Shown one piece after another: positions 54,669-62,381 of a stretch of DNA of 64,000 bases. Numbering within the stretch: the first letter of the stretch is position 1; each line of letters opens with the position of its first letter. Position numbers and translations under genes: made by a program. The notes beneath the pieces are model-generated. The model was given only the letters and a program-made list of their open reading frames with translations. It had not been told where the DNA came from and did not search any database. Source of the stretch: Nitrosopumilus sp. Its GTDB lineage: Archaea; Thermoproteota; Nitrososphaeria; Nitrososphaerales; Nitrosopumilaceae. The stretch spans positions 1,152,001 to 1,216,000 of the forward strand of contig OZ241981.1 in the NCBI GenBank assembly GCA_965204345.1, read 5' to 3'.

Positions 54669-55658
54669 ATGTTTAAGACAATATTTTTTAGTTTACAAAA
54701 AAAATTATTGTTACTAGTATTATCTGCTACATTAACCTCGATACTTATCACAACCATTCTATTCCTAAATTTTGATCATATTCAAATTTTTGAAATGCAA
54801 GAAAATATCATAGGAATTGGAATGGCATTGATGGTCGGACTAAGTGGCATTACATATTTTCTTTCAAAGCGCCTTTCTCAGCCAATAACAAAACTAAGTG
54901 ATGCAGCTAATAAAATAACACATGGAGACTTTAGTGTTAGAACCAATATAAAATCAAATGATGAAATTGGGCATCTTTCTTCATCCTTTGACTCGATGGC
55001 TCAAAAATTACAAGAGTCACTAATCGAGATTAAAGAACAAAAAGATGTCATAAAACAACAAGAAGATATCTTATTGCAGTTTTCTGAACAGAGTGAAAAG
55101 TGTTGTGTGGGGCTGATAGATATTATGAATTCAACGAAGATATGTGCAAATTTATCAGATTCACAAATAAGTGAATTTTATAAAATTTTCCTAAATTCTA
55201 TAGCATCCACAATCAGAAGATTTGAAGGCACCATTGTAAAAAATCTTGGGGACGGATTGCTTTTCTATTTTTCAATAAAGGATACGAAAGATACGGTCAC
55301 ATTAAAAAAATGTCTGAATTGCTGTCTGGCCTTGGGGGAAGAACACGGCAATATTTTAAAAGAATTAGAGAAACAGAATCTTCCATCACTAAACTATAGA
55401 ACTAGCGCAACATATGGAGGTGTGAGAATAGCTAAAACAACATCATCATCAACAAATGATATTTTTGGGGTTACTGTAAACAGATGTGCTAAAATCAATC
55501 GTAGTTCGCCTGCAAACGGAGTAATTATTGGCGAGGGCCTTTATGGTTTAGTAAAAGAATTTGAGGGATATTTTTTCAAAAAAGTTGAAAATGAATCAAT
55601 TTCTGCAGAATATGGATATACGGGATATGTAGTTTCTAAAAAAAATTATAATGATTAA
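54669..55658 (+). CDS. Membrane class III adenylate/guanylate cyclase with HAMP domain
   Basis: Two TMs, HAMP (PITKL...DEIGHLSSSFDSM), IDIMNST, VKNLGDGLL, DIFGVTVN. Confidence 0.85.
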   Translation: MFKTIFFSLQKKLLLLVLSATLTSILITTILFLNFDHIQIFEMQENIIGIGMALMVGLSGITYFLSKRLSQPITKLSDAANKITHGDFSVRTNIKSNDEIGHLSSSFDSMAQKLQESLIEIKEQKDVIKQQEDILLQFSEQSEKCCVGLIDIMNSTKICANLSDSQISEFYKIFLNSIASTIRRFEGTIVKNLGDGLLFYFSIKDTKDTVTLKKCLNCCLALGEEHGNILKELEKQNLPSLNYRTSATYGGVRIAKTTSSSTNDIFGVTVNRCAKINRSSPANGVIIGEGLYGLVKEFEGYFFKKVENESISAEYGYTGYVVSKKNYND

Positions 55659-56809
55659 TTTTTAGAAAAACCTAGTCTTGATGCCCATCCTCGCTTTTGT
55701 TTTTTAGTTGATTTCATCGATAGATTATCTAACATTTCATATGTGATCGTAAATCCATTGCCAACCATAGTGGCATCTTTTGCATAGTTTTCCTTGTTTG
55801 GCACAAATTCATCAGACAAGTCTTTAATTTTTTTAGTCTTCAAATCAAATAGCCGAATTTTTTTATTATTTTCAAGTTTTATGATTGCATCCCCACTTAG
55901 TCCTTGAATGGAAAAATTTTCAAAGAAACGTATGAAACCACCCTGTTTTAGTTCAATCACAGAATCATAGGTGAATTTTCCGCCATAAAATAAAATTTCC
56001 CGTGCAGACAAAATGACATCATCTTCTACATTAAGGACAATGATTGAATCTGCTTCTAGCAATACGGTATTTATAATATTTTCAGCAATGATCTTTCCGT
56101 TTGGAGCTGAAATGTGGGTTCGATGTTCTTGAATTTGAAATATTCCTACCCTGCCCTGAGGATCTTCAACTGTATATTTTCTGCCATAAACGTTCCCAAT
56201 TACAGCATTGCCATTATCTATAGTTATTTCAGCACCATTTTCAATTTTATATTTATTTTCTAATGGATCAATAAATTTGAAATCTCCATTAGTAAGATGG
56301 ATGTGTGTTTGGAATTCCTGCGTCCATGATGGACTAGTAATGCTACCTTGCATAATTATCGGGCCATCATAGGTCAGATTTCCTGCCATAAAATTTCCTT
56401 TGATTGATAAAGATCCTGTTATTTTTCTTTCTAATTCAATTTCACCGAGGGTTTTAGAACCAAATAATCGTGAGGCAGTTGAGTTTGACCTATTTAATGC
56501 TGCAGCCCATTCTTCAGCGATTTTCATTTCTTTGAATAACTCTTGACCTAAAATCTGATTTTTTCTTCTAACATCAGCCTCGGTGTCACCAGAAAATACC
56601 CTAGAATTTTTTAATTTTTCATTATCAGTATCAGGATACTTTTTACCAATTTTTAGATCATCGTATGCTTGTTTAATTTTAATAAACTGTTCATTTTCTC
56701 CCCCACGATCAGAATGGAATTGAAGTGCCAGTCGTCTAAATGCATCTCGAATTTCCTTTTCAGTGGAACCTTCCATTATTCCTAAAATATCATAATTACT
56801 CTCTGCCAT
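55655..56809 (-). CDS. J-domain protein (HSD variant) with beta-rich C-terminal region
   Basis: NYDILGI...IRDAFRRLALQFHSDRGG...FIKIKQAYDDL. Confidence 0.75.
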   Translation of the reverse strand: MAESNYDILGIMEGSTEKEIRDAFRRLALQFHSDRGGENEQFIKIKQAYDDLKIGKKYPDTDNEKLKNSRVFSGDTEADVRRKNQILGQELFKEMKIAEEWAAALNRSNSTASRLFGSKTLGEIELERKITGSLSIKGNFMAGNLTYDGPIIMQGSITSPSWTQEFQTHIHLTNGDFKFIDPLENKYKIENGAEITIDNGNAVIGNVYGRKYTVEDPQGRVGIFQIQEHRTHISAPNGKIIAENIINTVLLEADSIIVLNVEDDVILSAREILFYGGKFTYDSVIELKQGGFIRFFENFSIQGLSGDAIIKLENNKKIRLFDLKTKKIKDLSDEFVPNKENYAKDATMVGNGFTITYEMLDNLSMKSTKKQKRGWASRLGFSKN

Positions 56810-56868
56810 TTTTACATCAGCAAAGTTAATTTCTATATTTTCTATACTTTTAGGTTTCTACACGATTA

Positions 56869-57522
56869 TTACTGATTATTAGATTTGATAAGTGCAATAA
56901 CTGCAATTGTAATTATAATAAATCCAACCGTAATTATAATAAATCTAATGGGGTTTAATTGTATATTTTCAAGATTGTCTATTGATTCTTTCAGATCATT
57001 GACATCCTCAATTAACGCAGTATGCCCATCAATCATTTGTGTTATTGTAATATCAGATGGTTCGGGAAATTCTATGTATGAACGCTCATTAACTTTGGGT
57101 GGATGCATAGATAAGCTGATTGGAGTATCAACAATGGTTCCTAGAATGTTTGCTTGATAAAAGCCTGAGACAGTTGGGTTTACAAATGCATAATATTTTC
57201 CAGGAATGTTATGATCAGGCGATAAAGGAAGAGTGATGCTCTCATCTTTGTAAATTAATTTTATTTTTACTGTTTTTTTTAAATCTGGAACGCCATTTTT
57301 AAATACTTGATCTTCAAGCTCCAACCCAGACTCTAAAGGACTCACATAGAATTCAATAGCATTGGTTTCTCCAGATACAACCGGCTCATTCATCCAGCCA
57401 ATTTCAACTCGATATTCCCCCACAGCATCAACTGTGTGACCATATGCAATCCCAAATAATCCTGGTGCAATCAATAAAGATAAAATCAGATACTTTAATT
57501 TCATACTCAAAAAACCAAACAT
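56869..57522 (-). CDS. Surface/membrane-anchored hypothetical protein
   Basis: Signal peptide ending AYG|H, IGWMNEP motif, C-terminal coiled coil + TM. Confidence 0.6.
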   Translation of the reverse strand: MFGFLSMKLKYLILSLLIAPGLFGIAYGHTVDAVGEYRVEIGWMNEPVVSGETNAIEFYVSPLESGLELEDQVFKNGVPDLKKTVKIKLIYKDESITLPLSPDHNIPGKYYAFVNPTVSGFYQANILGTIVDTPISLSMHPPKVNERSYIEFPEPSDITITQMIDGHTALIEDVNDLKESIDNLENIQLNPIRFIIITVGFIIITIAVIALIKSNNQ

Positions 57523-57573: not shown

Positions 57574-59037
57574 TCATGCATCCGCATACATTGAAACTTC
57601 CCAGGCAGTGGGGGTTTGTGCAAAAGCAGTATATTCTTTGTATTTTAATTCAGCATATTGATCTAAAAAGTCAGTAGTAAAAATTTCTTCTAAGAATTTT
57701 GAATCACTTGCTAAAGAATCAAGTGCGCCTTTTAGAGATACAGGCAAAGATCCAATGTTATATTCGCGCTTTTTTTCTGTAGAGAGTTTGTATACATTTT
57801 CTTCAATAGGGTCTCCGGGATCAATTTTATTTTTTATTCCGTCTAATCCTGCAAGTAATAATGCAGCCTCTAAAAGATAGATATTTGCAGAAGGGTCAGG
57901 CACGCGATATTCAATTCTTTTACTCTTTTCTTGATTTCGGTTATACATTGGAATTCTGATTGCAGTAGAACGGTTTGCTAGTCCCCAACAGACATTGACA
58001 GGAGCTTCAAATCCGGGAACAAGACGCTTGTAAGAATTTGTCGTAGGGTTTGATATTGCACACAAAGCCGATGCATGACTCAGAATTCCTCCTACATAAT
58101 ATCTTCCAGTTTGACTCATTTGTGCTACGTCATCATCCCTATCATACATTACATTCGTATTTTCATTCCACAAACTCTGATGCGTGTGCATGGCCGATGC
58201 GTTATCACCAAAGATTGGTTTTGGCATAAATGTTGCAACTTTGTTTTTCCTTTTAGCTTTAATTTTAACTAAATTTTTTACTGCAATTACATTGTCTGCC
58301 ATAGAAATCATTTCATCATAAACCAGATTAATTTCACATTGGCCAGAAGTTGCTACCTCATGGTGTTCAGCTTCAATTTTTATTCCGAAATAATTATACA
58401 AATCATCACATACATCCTTTCTGAATCCTTCAAGTGTATCCTTGGGTTGTGATGGATAATATCCTTCTTTGATATCTATAGCAGTACTAACATTTCCTTT
58501 AGACCAAGGCGATTCTTTAGATTCTATAGAATAGCCGGATCCTCCTCCAGAATGCGTTGCAGCATAAGGTGATGGATAAACATTGATAGCATCAAATACA
58601 AAAAATTCTATCTCAGGACCCCAATTAGTATGGGTAAAACCAAATTCTCCAAGTTTTTCTGTTGCTTTGTGTGCAATTCCTCTAGAATCACGGTTATAGC
58701 GTGATTCTTTATTTGTGTTCCCATCATACAGATCACAAAATATTCTTGCATTTTTTCTGTGACCTGGATCATAGTCATTGGGAAGAACTTTAAATGACGT
58801 TGGATCAGGCATTAAGATCATATCAGAGTTATTTACCGACTTGAATCCAACAATCGAGCTTGCATCTAATTTTTCAAGACCGTTAACAAAGCTGTTCTTA
58901 TCAATTGCGTAACTTGGCATGCCAACGTTATGAAGCTCGCCGAAGATATCTACAAACCAGAAATCTATGAAAGATATATTTTCATCTTGAATGGCTTTTA
59001 ACACTTGATCTGAATTCAATTTTAATATTTTTAACAA
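57574..59037 (-). CDS. glnA: Glutamine synthetase type I family protein (divergent glutamate-binding loop)
   Basis: LDASSI, GPEIEFF, HHEVA...QCEI, FMPKP, DNASAMHTHQS, NSYKRLVPGFEAP, NRSTAIRIP, RIEYR. Confidence 0.88.
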   Translation of the reverse strand: MLKILKLNSDQVLKAIQDENISFIDFWFVDIFGELHNVGMPSYAIDKNSFVNGLEKLDASSIVGFKSVNNSDMILMPDPTSFKVLPNDYDPGHRKNARIFCDLYDGNTNKESRYNRDSRGIAHKATEKLGEFGFTHTNWGPEIEFFVFDAINVYPSPYAATHSGGGSGYSIESKESPWSKGNVSTAIDIKEGYYPSQPKDTLEGFRKDVCDDLYNYFGIKIEAEHHEVATSGQCEINLVYDEMISMADNVIAVKNLVKIKAKRKNKVATFMPKPIFGDNASAMHTHQSLWNENTNVMYDRDDDVAQMSQTGRYYVGGILSHASALCAISNPTTNSYKRLVPGFEAPVNVCWGLANRSTAIRIPMYNRNQEKSKRIEYRVPDPSANIYLLEAALLLAGLDGIKNKIDPGDPIEENVYKLSTEKKREYNIGSLPVSLKGALDSLASDSKFLEEIFTTDFLDQYAELKYKEYTAFAQTPTAWEVSMYADA

Positions 59038-59099
59038 ATTTCGTTACTAATGTTATCTAGTAAGATAGAATTGTCAAGTTAGTCAGGTAAATTATAAAA

Positions 59100-60455
59100 T
59101 TATTGATGTGAGCTGATCTTTGATGCCTTAAGGGCATCAAGTTCGTCTTCAAAGAAGAATTTATCTCCATATGCAGGTTCCAAGTCATCTAACCAAATTG
59201 CATTTTCATCATATTTTGCAAAAAATGGTTCATGTACCCAATCAGGGTTCCTTCCCTGTAAGAATCTCAAAACTATCAATTTTTGATCGTTTAATTGAAT
59301 TGTCCCGGCTACCTGTACTTTTCCAGGCGTGGCAGACATACTGGGTCCACGAACGGTTCTTGCTAATCCGCTTACAGACGAATATGCCTTGCTAAAAATC
59401 TCATATGCTTTGATTAAAGGAACGCCAAAGTAATGTTGTGCGCCTGTATCTCTTACAACAAACATGTAGTATGGTATACAACCTAGTTGAACCTGGGTAG
59501 TCCACATTTTTGCCCACATGTTGGCATCATCATTGATATGTGCCAATATTGGCGACTGGGTTCTAATTTGTGCACCTGTCTTTCTTATTTCTTTTATTGC
59601 GGATTTTACAGCATCTGTTGATAATTCATTTAGATGATTAAAGTGTCCCATGAAAGCTAGATGTAAACCGCTATCAGTAATTCGTCTGAAAACATCTAGC
59701 ATTTCTTCAGAATCAGAATCAGTCAAAAATTTGTAAGGCCAGTAGGAGAGAGCCTTTGTTCCAATTCGAATTGTTTTAAGATTTGGAATCTTCGATTCAA
59801 TTAATGCATCAATATACCTAGAGAATATTTTTGCTTTCATGATCATAGGATCACCGCCTGTAAAAAGTACATCACTGATTTCTGGATGTTCTGAGACATA
59901 TTGGGTTAATTGCTCGCCCTCTTGCATTGCAAATTTCATTTCATCCATTCCAACAAACTGCGGCCATCTAAAACAAAAGCTGCAGTACGCATGACATGTT
60001 TGGCTTTGACTGGGGAAAAAAAGACAGGTTTCCTTGTATTTATGTTGCATTCCATACAACTTTGTTCCATCTTTTAATGTAGGAACGTTTAGTTCCATTT
60101 GACCTGCCGGGTGGGGATTTAACTGTAAACGAATTTCATTTGCAACATTTGCTATTTCTTTTTTATCGGCATTATTTTTTAAAGCGGTTTCCATTTTTTT
60201 GTAATGCTCTGGATTTAACATTCCTTTCTGAGGGAAGGTCAAAACATACATTGGATCATTGGGAATATTATTCCAATCAATTAATTTTTCAACAACATAA
60301 TTATTTGCTTTAAACGGCAGTACATTTCCAACTACCTCCATTTCAAATTGGGTTTCTTCAGAAAGATTTTGAATGTGCGGAAGTGTGCGAAAATTTGATA
60401 ATGTATAAGACTTTAGTGATGGAGAACCACTCCATATTGATTCCTGATATGTCAT
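59100..60455 (-). CDS. KamA-family radical-SAM/PLP amino-acid 2,3-aminomutase
   Basis: HKYKET, CHAYCSFC (CxxxCxxC) + FR, FTGGDP, RIGTK, PYYMF, PGKV (candidate PLP lysine). Confidence 0.88.
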   Translation of the reverse strand: MTYQESIWSGSPSLKSYTLSNFRTLPHIQNLSEETQFEMEVVGNVLPFKANNYVVEKLIDWNNIPNDPMYVLTFPQKGMLNPEHYKKMETALKNNADKKEIANVANEIRLQLNPHPAGQMELNVPTLKDGTKLYGMQHKYKETCLFFPSQSQTCHAYCSFCFRWPQFVGMDEMKFAMQEGEQLTQYVSEHPEISDVLFTGGDPMIMKAKIFSRYIDALIESKIPNLKTIRIGTKALSYWPYKFLTDSDSEEMLDVFRRITDSGLHLAFMGHFNHLNELSTDAVKSAIKEIRKTGAQIRTQSPILAHINDDANMWAKMWTTQVQLGCIPYYMFVVRDTGAQHYFGVPLIKAYEIFSKAYSSVSGLARTVRGPSMSATPGKVQVAGTIQLNDQKLIVLRFLQGRNPDWVHEPFFAKYDENAIWLDDLEPAYGDKFFFEDELDALKASKISSHQ

Positions 60456-60602
60456 TTTGTAAGTAGGCTATTTGCCCTTGTTAAAGGTTACATGATTTTT
60501 ACGCACGGAATTTCTTAATTTATAAAAAACTTGATTAAAATTGGAAGTAAAAATGATAATAGTGGCTATCTTTGTATTCTAGAATGGAGAATGTGCTAGT
60601 TA

Positions 60603-62381
60603 ATGGCTGAAGACGAAATAATAGGAGCAGTTGCAGGACAGGCAAGTGAATTTCAAAGTGTCTCTGAATTAATAGGGTCATCTGAATCATTACAAATTGC
60701 ATTTACTGTTTTAGTTATTGGAATTATTGGAATCATACTGGTATATCGTGGTTTTTCAAATTGGGTCAAAACTCAAAAATTTAATTATGTAAGACCCCAT
60801 CTTTCACGATTTGTTAGAGTGGGTGTCTTGCCATTTTTTGCAATAATTCTCATTACCAGCATGAACATGTACATCCAATCCTTTGATGTATTTGATGAAT
60901 CCATAATAAAAGCAGAGCAAATTGCATTGGATATTGAAGAAAACCAAGAAGGAAAAAACCCAGCTGAAACTTTTTCCAAGATTCTCAATACGATCAACAT
61001 ACTTGTAATTGGATATTCAGTAGCACACTTAATTCCCATAATGCTTACTAAACGAGAAAAAAGCAATCTTGAGAAAGAAGATTTTGAAATGTGGAAAGAT
61101 ATGAGGGGCTTTTCTGATGATAAAGATGATTTATTTCATAAATTCTTCAAGTGGGTTGCACCTAAAAATACGCCGGAGGATATGTCTGAAGAAAATTTTG
61201 AAGAAAATCTCAAAACAGAAGAAGGAATGCGCATACTTGAAGAATACAGGACAACTAAAGGACTGCCAATTGGAAGTTATGAGCAACTGATCAAAGAACC
61301 GTTTGAAGAATGGAAAAAGTCTGAAAGAATAAAGTATAATGAATATTTTAAAAAAGCAGTCTCAGGAAACAATCAATCAGGAAAAAAGCTTAGAACAGGA
61401 CAAGAAACAGAAGAAATCTATCCAATTGACACATGGAGAGAAGAAAAAAGATTGGGCGGATTTGATCCGATAATTCCTGGTACAAAACCGCCCGGATATG
61501 CAGTAAGAAAAAGAAAAAATCTCCCTAAATCAATTTCACAAATTTTGCCTTTAGGAATTTTTGCAGTTGTGATTATTGGTGTCGTTAGTTGGTGGGGGAT
61601 TGATCTTATTGTACTTGCGACTGCAACAGGAGGATTGGCAATAGGTATAGGATTGGCTTTGCAAGAAACGATGCAGAATTATTTTGCATATATTTTGATT
61701 AGAAAGGATAAGATATTTGGAGAAGGAGAACGTGTCAAGCTAGATACTGGATATAACGGATATGTACATAAAATTACGCCTAGAGTTACCTATGTTAGAG
61801 ATGCGCTAAACGAATCATTTGCAGTAATTCCAACAAGACAGTTAGTTAATGCCCAAATAATCAACTATTCTAAAGAGATCAAGATGGTACCTGCAATTGT
61901 AGAAGTGGGTGTTTCGTACCTCAATGATCCAAAGCAAGTTTCGGCAATTCTTGTAAAAGTAGGAAATCGTGCAATGAAGGAAGTCATTGATAGGAAAGGA
62001 AGGCATCTAGTTAGACAGTTACGTTGTCCATACTTGGAAAAAAACAAGCCTAGTTGTGGATGTGACAACGATATTCATGTTGAAATAAATCAGCCGGTTG
62101 TACGATTCAATCAATTTAATGATTCATCATTAGATTTTTCATTGTGGCTTTATGTAAGGGATTATGGGGCACAGTTCAAGACCAAAACAGACATGAGAAT
62201 GATCATGTATGAAGAATTCAAGAAATATGACATTAGAATTCCATGGCCAATCAGAACTGTGTATCAGGGAGATGAAAAACGTGAGAAAGAAGAGATTGAC
62301 AAACTCAACGAACAAAGAAACAGTGTTATTGACAAATATGGTATCGGCGATATTGGTCGTGGCAGTGGAGAAGATGAATAA
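60603..62381 (+). CDS. MscS-family mechanosensitive channel with a large insertion
   Basis: GGLAIGIGLALQETMQNYFA TM3, GERV...GYV..I, IPT, VGVSY, F..SSLDF, IRIPWP. Confidence 0.88.
   Translation: MAEDEIIGAVAGQASEFQSVSELIGSSESLQIAFTVLVIGIIGIILVYRGFSNWVKTQKFNYVRPHLSRFVRVGVLPFFAIILITSMNMYIQSFDVFDESIIKAEQIALDIEENQEGKNPAETFSKILNTINILVIGYSVAHLIPIMLTKREKSNLEKEDFEMWKDMRGFSDDKDDLFHKFFKWVAPKNTPEDMSEENFEENLKTEEGMRILEEYRTTKGLPIGSYEQLIKEPFEEWKKSERIKYNEYFKKAVSGNNQSGKKLRTGQETEEIYPIDTWREEKRLGGFDPIIPGTKPPGYAVRKRKNLPKSISQILPLGIFAVVIIGVVSWWGIDLIVLATATGGLAIGIGLALQETMQNYFAYILIRKDKIFGEGERVKLDTGYNGYVHKITPRVTYVRDALNESFAVIPTRQLVNAQIINYSKEIKMVPAIVEVGVSYLNDPKQVSAILVKVGNRAMKEVIDRKGRHLVRQLRCPYLEKNKPSCGCDNDIHVEINQPVVRFNQFNDSSLDFSLWLYVRDYGAQFKTKTDMRMIMYEEFKKYDIRIPWPIRTVYQGDEKREKEEIDKLNEQRNSVIDKYGIGDIGRGSGEDE

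Follow-up and report, generated by a model that had tools for sequence, protein, structure and literature searches.

Which gene makes the beta-glutamate of the ammonia-oxidising archaea, and what would the genes next to it do with this compound? The question is raised by a locus of three genes in the genome of a Nitrosopumilus sp. (assembly GCA_965204345.1; 2.12 Mb, 99.7% complete), located in a stretch of 64,000 nucleotides of contig OZ241981.1 that we call the window. A KamA-family aminomutase, one of the enzymes that use a radical S-adenosylmethionine (SAM) mechanism together with pyridoxal phosphate (PLP), is followed here by a type I glutamine synthetase (GS), and a gene for a large MscS-type mechanosensitive channel is transcribed divergently (Table 1). 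The ammonia-oxidising archaea count among the most abundant cells of the ocean, and beta-glutamate is their dominant reported metabolite. In the available part of the published account it ranks first in abundance among the identified metabolites of Nitrosopumilus maritimus, at 730 mM, and it rises with depth in seawater particles (PMC8269262). An earlier reading of the window, made from the letters and open reading frames only (the sequence-only reading), knew of no description of such a system in these archaea. The solute itself has already been published (PMC8269262), while the gene assignment may be new, and a full-text literature search gave no paper in which beta-glutamate was tied to a gene of the KamA family in these archaea.

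We favour, with a probability of about 0.6, the explanation that the locus is a compatible-solute unit composed of a glutamate 2,3-aminomutase, an MscS release valve and an accessory GS (GSw) that amidates beta-glutamate. The scheme, in which the substrates of the two enzymes, the function of the channel in the cell and any control by salt are inferred, would work as follows. The KamA-family enzyme would shift the amino group of L-glutamate by one carbon, from C2 to C3, by means of its [4Fe-4S] cluster, SAM and PLP, and the product would be beta-glutamate, the anionic solute measured at ~0.7 M in N. maritimus. The divergent channel would be a safety valve, releasing the solute pool when the external osmolarity drops. 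GSw, in turn, would most likely amidate beta-glutamate with ammonia and ATP to give the zwitterionic beta-glutamine.

The aminomutase and its substrate

The aminomutase is the only KamA-family gene in the whole genome. Its best model was the general KamA family TIGR00238 with 126.6 bits, under the cut-off of 199.2, and given this score it is classified as a divergent subfamily within the KamA family. The hallmarks of the family are nevertheless conserved. Residues C154, C158 and C161 (CxxxCxxC), G200, D202 and K379 are invariant in both alignments made (8 and 36 sequences), and G201 of the GGD motif is invariant in the 8 sequences and at least 90% conserved in the 36. We take CxxxCxxC to be the cluster motif, GGD the SAM-binding motif and K379 the PLP-binding lysine. 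With the AlphaFold model (mean predicted local distance difference test, pLDDT, 92.5) the top solved fold was 2A5H, at an E-value of 2e-20 and a template-modelling (TM) score of 0.62-0.69, and the runner-up came 14 orders of E-value behind (6.5e-6). This structure belongs to lysine 2,3-aminomutase (LAM) and was used as the reference for residue numbering.

The substrate pocket is where the archaeal enzyme departs from LAM. Two aspartates of 2A5H, Asp293 and Asp330, presumably hold the side-chain amine of lysine, and both are replaced. Asp293 corresponds to Arg335 in the pairwise, the multiple and the 36-sequence profile alignments, and in the AlphaFold model the strand 327-333 stops just short of this residue; the placement of Arg335 is based on these three sequence alignments and on the end of the strand. 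The position of Asp330 was occupied by Ser372 or Ser374 in the multiple alignment, which also contained a protein annotated as arginine aminomutase and a canonical KamA. In addition, two extra arginines, R366 and R369, are found ahead of the PLP lysine. The change of two acids into Arg and Ser suggests a pocket that suits an acidic side chain and is unsuited to lysine or arginine.

The equivalog models point in the same direction. Against TIGR03820 (lysine 2,3-aminomutase) the protein scored 108 bits for a cut-off of 525.4, which together with the replacement of both aspartates leaves it outside this group, and the scores against EpmB (99 bits, cut-off 369) and arginine aminomutase (97 bits, cut-off 600) were similarly low. 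The sequence-only reading had seen no AblB-type acetyltransferase near the locus, and a profile search with TIGR03827 gave no match anywhere in the genome. Considering the active-site substitutions, the lack of AblB and a homolog in an incednine-type cluster (see below), the enzyme most likely acts on glutamate and not on lysine or arginine, in agreement with what had been proposed before.

The channel pairing and the two glutamine synthetases

The open reading frame coordinates and the family models agree with the layout first described, a KamA gene with a co-oriented type I GS at 62 nt and a divergent MscS gene at 147 bp. The channel passes PF00924 (MscS beta-domain) with 28.5 bits for a cut-off of 20.2 and PF21082 (C-terminal domain) with 28.4 for 21, and it reached the cut-off of no NCBIfam equivalog. 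Its hydrophobic segments lie at ~23-55, 66-91, 130-149 and 307-354, the last one directly preceding the beta-domain.

We compared gene order in the best 80 of 340 relatives of the locus, all of them named Nitrosopumilus, Nitrosarchaeum or, more broadly, for instance Nitrosopumilaceae, and scored only those with enough flanking sequence, that is, at least 2.1 kb upstream (8 loci were too short) and at least 1.7 kb downstream (9 too short). The MscS gene divergently adjoins the aminomutase in 68 of 72 loci, is 1.6-2.1 kb away in 3 and is missing in 1. GSw follows the aminomutase directly in 46 of 71 loci, is found 1.5 kb further in 1 and is absent from the other 24. In the few of the 80 loci whose record titles hint at a habitat, there was no evident relation to the presence of GSw, and we draw nothing from this. 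The pattern extends to other genera, in which 19 aminomutase loci were available: MscS was divergently adjacent in 14 and at 1.1 kb in 1, and GSw was directly downstream in 12. Among five genomes without an adjacent GS, four hold a single GS and all carry a gene of the second, housekeeping type described below (GS2); one of them has a GSw-type gene elsewhere, interrupted by stop codons. The arrangement is not due to chance, as seen in the 80-locus comparison, and its stable part is the divergent pair of aminomutase and MscS, the GS being accessory. The linkage of aminomutase and channel claimed at first sight is therefore conserved.

Furthermore, the same functions were found in a second gene order in two further genera (L115:6190-12509 and L120:5946-13507). 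There the aminomutase, a DUF432 protein, a short MscS and a GSw-type GS are all on the same strand. The channels are short canonical MscS proteins of 279-310 aa, the GSw-type GS are 58-59% identical, and one or two Na+/H+ exchanger genes come after the GS. Between the short MscS and the GS of L115 there is also a stand-alone Lrp/AsnC ligand-binding domain (L120 was not searched for it), which could be an amino-acid sensor for the cluster. The recurrence of aminomutase, MscS and GS in another order and with another type of channel is our strongest argument that their functions belong together. Synthesis and release of beta-glutamate are well supported by the MscS pairing and the active site, and the aminomutase is likely the long-missing gene for this known and very abundant archaeal solute. 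The part of the sequence-only reading that did not hold is that of a fixed three-gene unit, since GSw is missing from those 24 loci and from 34 of the 110 genomes with the aminomutase.

These genomes come from a survey of 151 genomes of the family, in which the aminomutase was present in 110, plus one with a 28-residue remnant. A class-level search found it in 77 of 92 genomes of the family and in none of 58 genomes from 12 other families. GS2 is present in all 151. GSw depends on the aminomutase, as 76 of the 78 genomes that have it also hold the aminomutase, and in the two others (G096 and G124) GSw is 144 and 828 nt from the start of its contig. GSw was called at a best E-value of 1e-190 or lower, and in four genomes, where the hits were partial and their type unclear, it was scored as absent. 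In three genera of patchy distribution aminomutase and GSw were found in identical genomes (4/12, 4/7 and 5/12), and are adjacent there. All these counts include kin that are not independent, as well as three unpublished genomes (G128, G112 and G113) whose removal changes no conclusion.

The genome has two GS genes. The sequence-only reading had pointed to a separate canonical glnA as the thing to look for, and one is indeed present ~16 kb from the locus, outside the window (L002:1147-2607), with 486 aa, 535.2 bits on TIGR00653 and 44% identity to GSw. GSw itself scores 516.6 bits on this GlnA equivalog, above the cut-off of 429.15. In order to place both we built a tree of 97 GS sequences taken from the collected loci, excluding hits that covered less than 430 residues and frames shorter than 440 aa. 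GS2 is 75-96% identical across the family and the GSw clade 58-100%. In five genomes that belong to other families of this order, the GS were closer to GS2 (50-62%) than to GSw (44-47%). In the tree GS2 tracks the family and the outgroups, and GSw forms a separate clade with longer branches. The phylogeny and universality of GS2, together with the separate clade of GSw, identify GS2 as the housekeeping glnA and GSw as an accessory paralog.

Aligned to the Salmonella enzyme (1F1H), GSw retains E141, E143, E227, E235, H284, E376, R338, E344, R356, R361 and R378, which we take to be the metal ligands and catalytic residues. At 24 positions, 64 GSw sequences are fixed differently from 31 GS2 or outgroup sequences. 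Two of these are A59, equivalent to Salmonella Gly51 in the Asp50-Gly-Ser-Ser loop, and A282, equivalent to Gly267; others are C350 and G352 (Ala333 and Ser335), I386 and E390 (Pro367 and Phe371) and a four-residue insert. A280 (Gly265) does not vary within GSw; in GS2 this position is mostly Gly. Asp50, Ser52 and Ser53 are kept. We assume that in the Salmonella enzyme the amino group of glutamate is bound by Asn264 and Gly265, and ammonium by Asp50 and Ser53; the changes of GSw would then lie at places sensitive to a shift of the amino group. The co-occurrence, the second gene order and these substitutions are comparative evidence that makes a beta-glutamine step by GSw plausible, and they are suggestive, not decisive.

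A different role for GSw, which we consider unlikely but worth serious attention, is that the aminomutase makes beta-glutamate and GSw is a second GS specific for alpha-glutamate, with other regulation or kinetics, that shares the glutamate pool. An isoenzyme of this kind would fit with the GlnA score of GSw, with the conservation of all its metal-binding and catalytic residues, with its dispensability in many genomes that keep the aminomutase and with an account of the N. maritimus metabolites that does not name beta-glutamine in its available part (PMC8269262). It would leave unexplained why GSw is found almost only together with the aminomutase and why it clusters with aminomutase and MscS also in the second gene order. 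The substitutions at Gly51, Gly265 and Gly267, which flank the residues with the presumed amino-group and ammonium roles, also speak for a changed specificity.

Two more observations were made on the GS sequences. GS2 (L002:1147-2607; L096-L100, L130-L149) has Asn at Salmonella His271 and is variable at Asn264, both of which are kept in GSw; such a deviation is unexpected in what is the sole GS of many genomes. A third type of GS was found in L148 (G127:C70:21772-23241), 49% identical to GSw and 44% to GS2. It branches beside the GSw clade and has an intermediate motif, with Gly at 265 and Ala at 267.

Bacterial relatives and competing explanations

A full HMMER scan gave 320 cluster representatives of the aminomutase at an E-value of 1e-30 or lower. 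Judging by sequence identity, its nearest relatives outside the Nitrosopumilaceae are bacterial: a tblastn search of plasmids found homologs 43-51% identical in Mycetohabitans, Nonomuraea, Burkholderia, Amycolatopsis, Nocardia, Streptomyces and Rhodococcus. The archaeal enzyme and the actinobacterial homologs in this range of identity have the motifs ERDTG and ARTVRGP(S/V)MS..GK in common. The one on a Streptomyces plasmid (48% identity over 89% of the length) is located between type I polyketide synthase (PKS) genes, and has as neighbours a hydrolase of the proline iminopeptidase family, a gene with the PLP aminotransferase fold and an adenylation enzyme, which is the gene layout of the incednine starter unit. 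According to the available part of the work on incednine, the radical SAM enzyme IdnL4 is held to turn L-glutamate into beta-glutamate, the PLP enzyme IdnL3 decarboxylates the product, and a knock-out of idnL4 abolishes the derived starter unit, confirming its role (PMC11284099). The archaeal aminomutase would belong to the same subfamily as IdnL4, a placement made through the incednine-type homolog of Streptomyces and not through the sequence of IdnL4 itself.

Other bacterial homologs are found in different surroundings. The one in Amycolatopsis adjoins a gene with the PLP aminotransferase fold, in a region that also has a gene of the Glu/Leu/Phe/Val dehydrogenase family and CoA-ester enzymes. 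In Rhodococcus the cluster (L151:9031-15825) contains a cupin, a SidA-type N-hydroxylating monooxygenase, a class I tRNA-ligase-like protein and a saccharopine-dehydrogenase-like protein. This layout of cupin, monooxygenase and tRNA-ligase-like genes presumably resembles that of hydrazine-forming pathways. Finally, one representative of the subfamily (P0128) is fused to a Lys/Orn-type N-hydroxylating monooxygenase.

These contexts raise the idea that beta-glutamate is only a step on the way to some other product, in the manner of incednine biosynthesis with its decarboxylation of beta-glutamate to 3-aminobutyrate, and that the MscS neighbour is incidental. Every bacterial relative whose context was read does sit in a secondary-metabolite or catabolic cluster. 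Nevertheless, we find the idea improbable for the archaea, because no IdnL3-like PLP decarboxylase, adenylation enzyme or PKS adjoins the archaeal gene, and beta-glutamate itself accumulates to the near-molar level given above in N. maritimus, as far as the available part of that account goes (PMC8269262). In addition, aminomutase and MscS stay paired from genus to genus, and the pairing is found again with another type of MscS. Very improbable is the alternative already raised by the sequence-only reading, an aminomutase acting on lysine or arginine whose beta-amino product is modified by the GS-like enzyme, for example by glutamylation: close relatives are publicly annotated as 'lysine 2,3-aminomutase' and some bacterial members of the subfamily are fused to or beside Lys/Orn-type N-hydroxylases, but the aspartate pair of 2A5H is gone, the lysine and arginine models are far under their cut-offs, the genome is without AblB, and GSw keeps Asp50, Ser52 and Ser53, two of which (Asp50 and Ser53) we take to form the ammonium site.

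There are also points that weigh against the compatible-solute unit, some of them concerning the aminomutase and others only the amidation step. The enzyme scores just 84.8 bits on TIGR04368, the model of the clostridial glutamate 2,3-aminomutase, with a cut-off of 650. For IdnL4, the available part of the incednine work states that activity in vitro was not observed (PMC11284099), and for methanogens early nuclear magnetic resonance work, as described in the available part of a later paper, argued against an aminomutase route to beta-glutamate (PMC1224877). The varied bacterial contexts, with a monooxygenase fusion and a cluster with cupin and tRNA-ligase-like genes, suggest that the subfamily may have more than one substrate. 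The aminomutase is lacking in 40 of the 151 family genomes, including all 4 sampled in each of two genera. As to GSw, the aminomutase does without it in the 34 genomes already mentioned, and the co-variation of both genes could reflect physical linkage alone, given that they are adjacent in the co-varying genera. Decayed copies with stop codons or a frameshift were found in two genomes (G097:C1:17603-18556 and L101 in G193), one of them still adjoining the aminomutase and the other elsewhere in the genome, which indicates an accessory GS undergoing repeated loss. GSw could also carry out ordinary glutamine synthesis, as it passes the GlnA model and keeps all catalytic residues, and the available part of the N. 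maritimus metabolite account names only beta-glutamic acid and not beta-glutamine (PMC8269262).

Taking all this together, we prefer the compatible-solute unit. A more far-reaching version of it can be put forward only tentatively, and we would not give it even odds. GSw might be the first dedicated beta-glutamine synthetase, and the beta-glutamate pool might come from a bacterial-type, oxygen-sensitive radical SAM aminomutase that the family's ancestor gained in a single event and that sustains a very high flux in an obligate aerobe.

Control regions, neighbouring genes and known systems

The alignment of 70 divergent intergenic regions showed a pair of conserved blocks, one for either start codon and ~20-39 nt upstream of it. 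They probably mark two promoters, and may be B-recognition (BRE) and TATA elements of mRNAs with short leaders. On the GS side, the start conserved among 51 distinct orthologous spacers is a TTG at 59019 and not the one at 59037, so that the real spacer is probably ~80 nt long and the protein 481 aa. This spacer is at least 90% conserved over ~50 nt in the 51 distinct sequences, beyond the expectation for a plain spacer, and a TATA-like element, TTTTATAA, comes immediately after the stop codon of the aminomutase. A structured RNA leader was considered here and found unsupported, with no match of the spacer in Rfam and a fold no better than shuffles (z -1.2). With no signal of RNA structure we prefer a promoter and an operator acting at the DNA level, and the GS probably has its own upstream control region, with promoter and regulator site, apart from that of the aminomutase. 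The spacer also has a small palindrome, TATCT..AGATA. In RNA libraries from two studies there are contigs that cover the coding part of each of the three genes with at least 99% identity, which is by itself no proof of transcription. No such contig spans 59008-59057 or 60486-60679 in four runs, and holes of this kind are uninformative on co-transcription.

Table 1 Features of the locus, in positions of the window
Feature	Positions	Strand	Description
Accessory type I GS (GSw)	57574-59037	-	Open reading frame of 487 aa; Gln-synt_C and Gln-synt_N domains
Aminomutase/GS spacer	59038-59099	-	TATA-like TTTTATAA at 59092-59099; block conserved at least 90% at 59044-59091
KamA-family radical SAM/PLP aminomutase	59100-60455	-	451 aa; proposed glutamate 2,3-aminomutase of an IdnL4-like subfamily
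Divergent intergenic region	60456-60602	.	Conserved blocks 60474-60492 and 60564-60583; probably two promoters
Large MscS-type mechanosensitive channel	60603-62381	+	592 aa; divergent; proposed solute release valve

Downstream of the locus there are two conserved neighbours (window positions 55655-57522) that stay in place with or without the GS. One is a protein of 217 aa (56869-57522) with hydrophobic ends and no family match, the other a protein of 384 aa (55655-56809) in which only an N-terminal DnaJ domain was recognised.

If the assignment is right, a named gene would serve as a marker for the carbon and nitrogen pool of beta-glutamate in metagenomes and metatranscriptomes. A subfamily of aminomutases known from antibiotic clusters, for which activity in vitro was never shown, would thereby obtain its first physiological role. 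How a radical SAM enzyme that is labile to oxygen can keep up a near-molar pool of its product in an aerobe is a question that follows. Should GSw make beta-glutamine, this would be a new enzyme specificity, by which the anionic beta-glutamate, in need of a counter-cation, is turned into a zwitterion, tuning both the charge and the nitrogen content of the pool. A simple genetic difference between strains could then explain differences in their salt or nitrogen ecology.

The closest parallel within the ammonia-oxidising archaea is the ectoine cluster of N. maritimus, which according to the 2016 work of Widderich and colleagues reportedly has an MscS gene in its operon. Genes for an osmolyte and for a mechanosensitive channel are linked in both cases, but solute and enzymes differ, and the channel is divergent here instead of being part of the same operon. 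The ectoine route seems to be missing in the present genome, where the sole match to ectoine synthase (G000:C1:2001829-2002074) has 20.9 bits, under the cut-off of 27. The clostridial glutamate 2,3-aminomutase (Eam) shares with the archaeal enzyme the superfamily, the cofactor motifs and the proposed reaction, and is a member of another subfamily, as its model indicates. Eam is said, in work of Ruzicka and Frey from 2007, to have Lys and Asn at the two aspartates of LAM, where the archaeal enzyme has Arg and Ser.

For the second step there is a precedent in Methanohalophilus portucalensis, whose GS was reported to make beta-glutamine from beta-glutamate, as given in the available part of that work (PMC1224877). 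This is also a type I GS and amidates beta-glutamate to a zwitterionic osmolyte, as proposed for GSw, although the activity there is that of the organism's GS, whereas the locus described here has a separate accessory paralog beside a canonical glnA and tied to the aminomutase. The archaeal route with lysine aminomutase and acetyltransferase, covered by the same part of that paper, resembles our locus in joining a KamA-family enzyme, which makes a beta-amino-acid osmolyte, to a second enzyme that removes charge (PMC1224877). It differs in starting from lysine and in using an acetyltransferase, while the present locus has neither the lysine-binding aspartates nor AblB and has a GS paralog in second place. 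Finally, the archaeal aminomutase and IdnL4 are alike in the proposed conversion of L-glutamate into beta-glutamate and in the motifs seen through the Streptomyces homolog. In the incednine pathway, a decarboxylase leads beta-glutamate into a polyketide starter unit; in the archaeal locus, there is no decarboxylase, the gene is paired with a channel, and the host is an aerobic archaeon.

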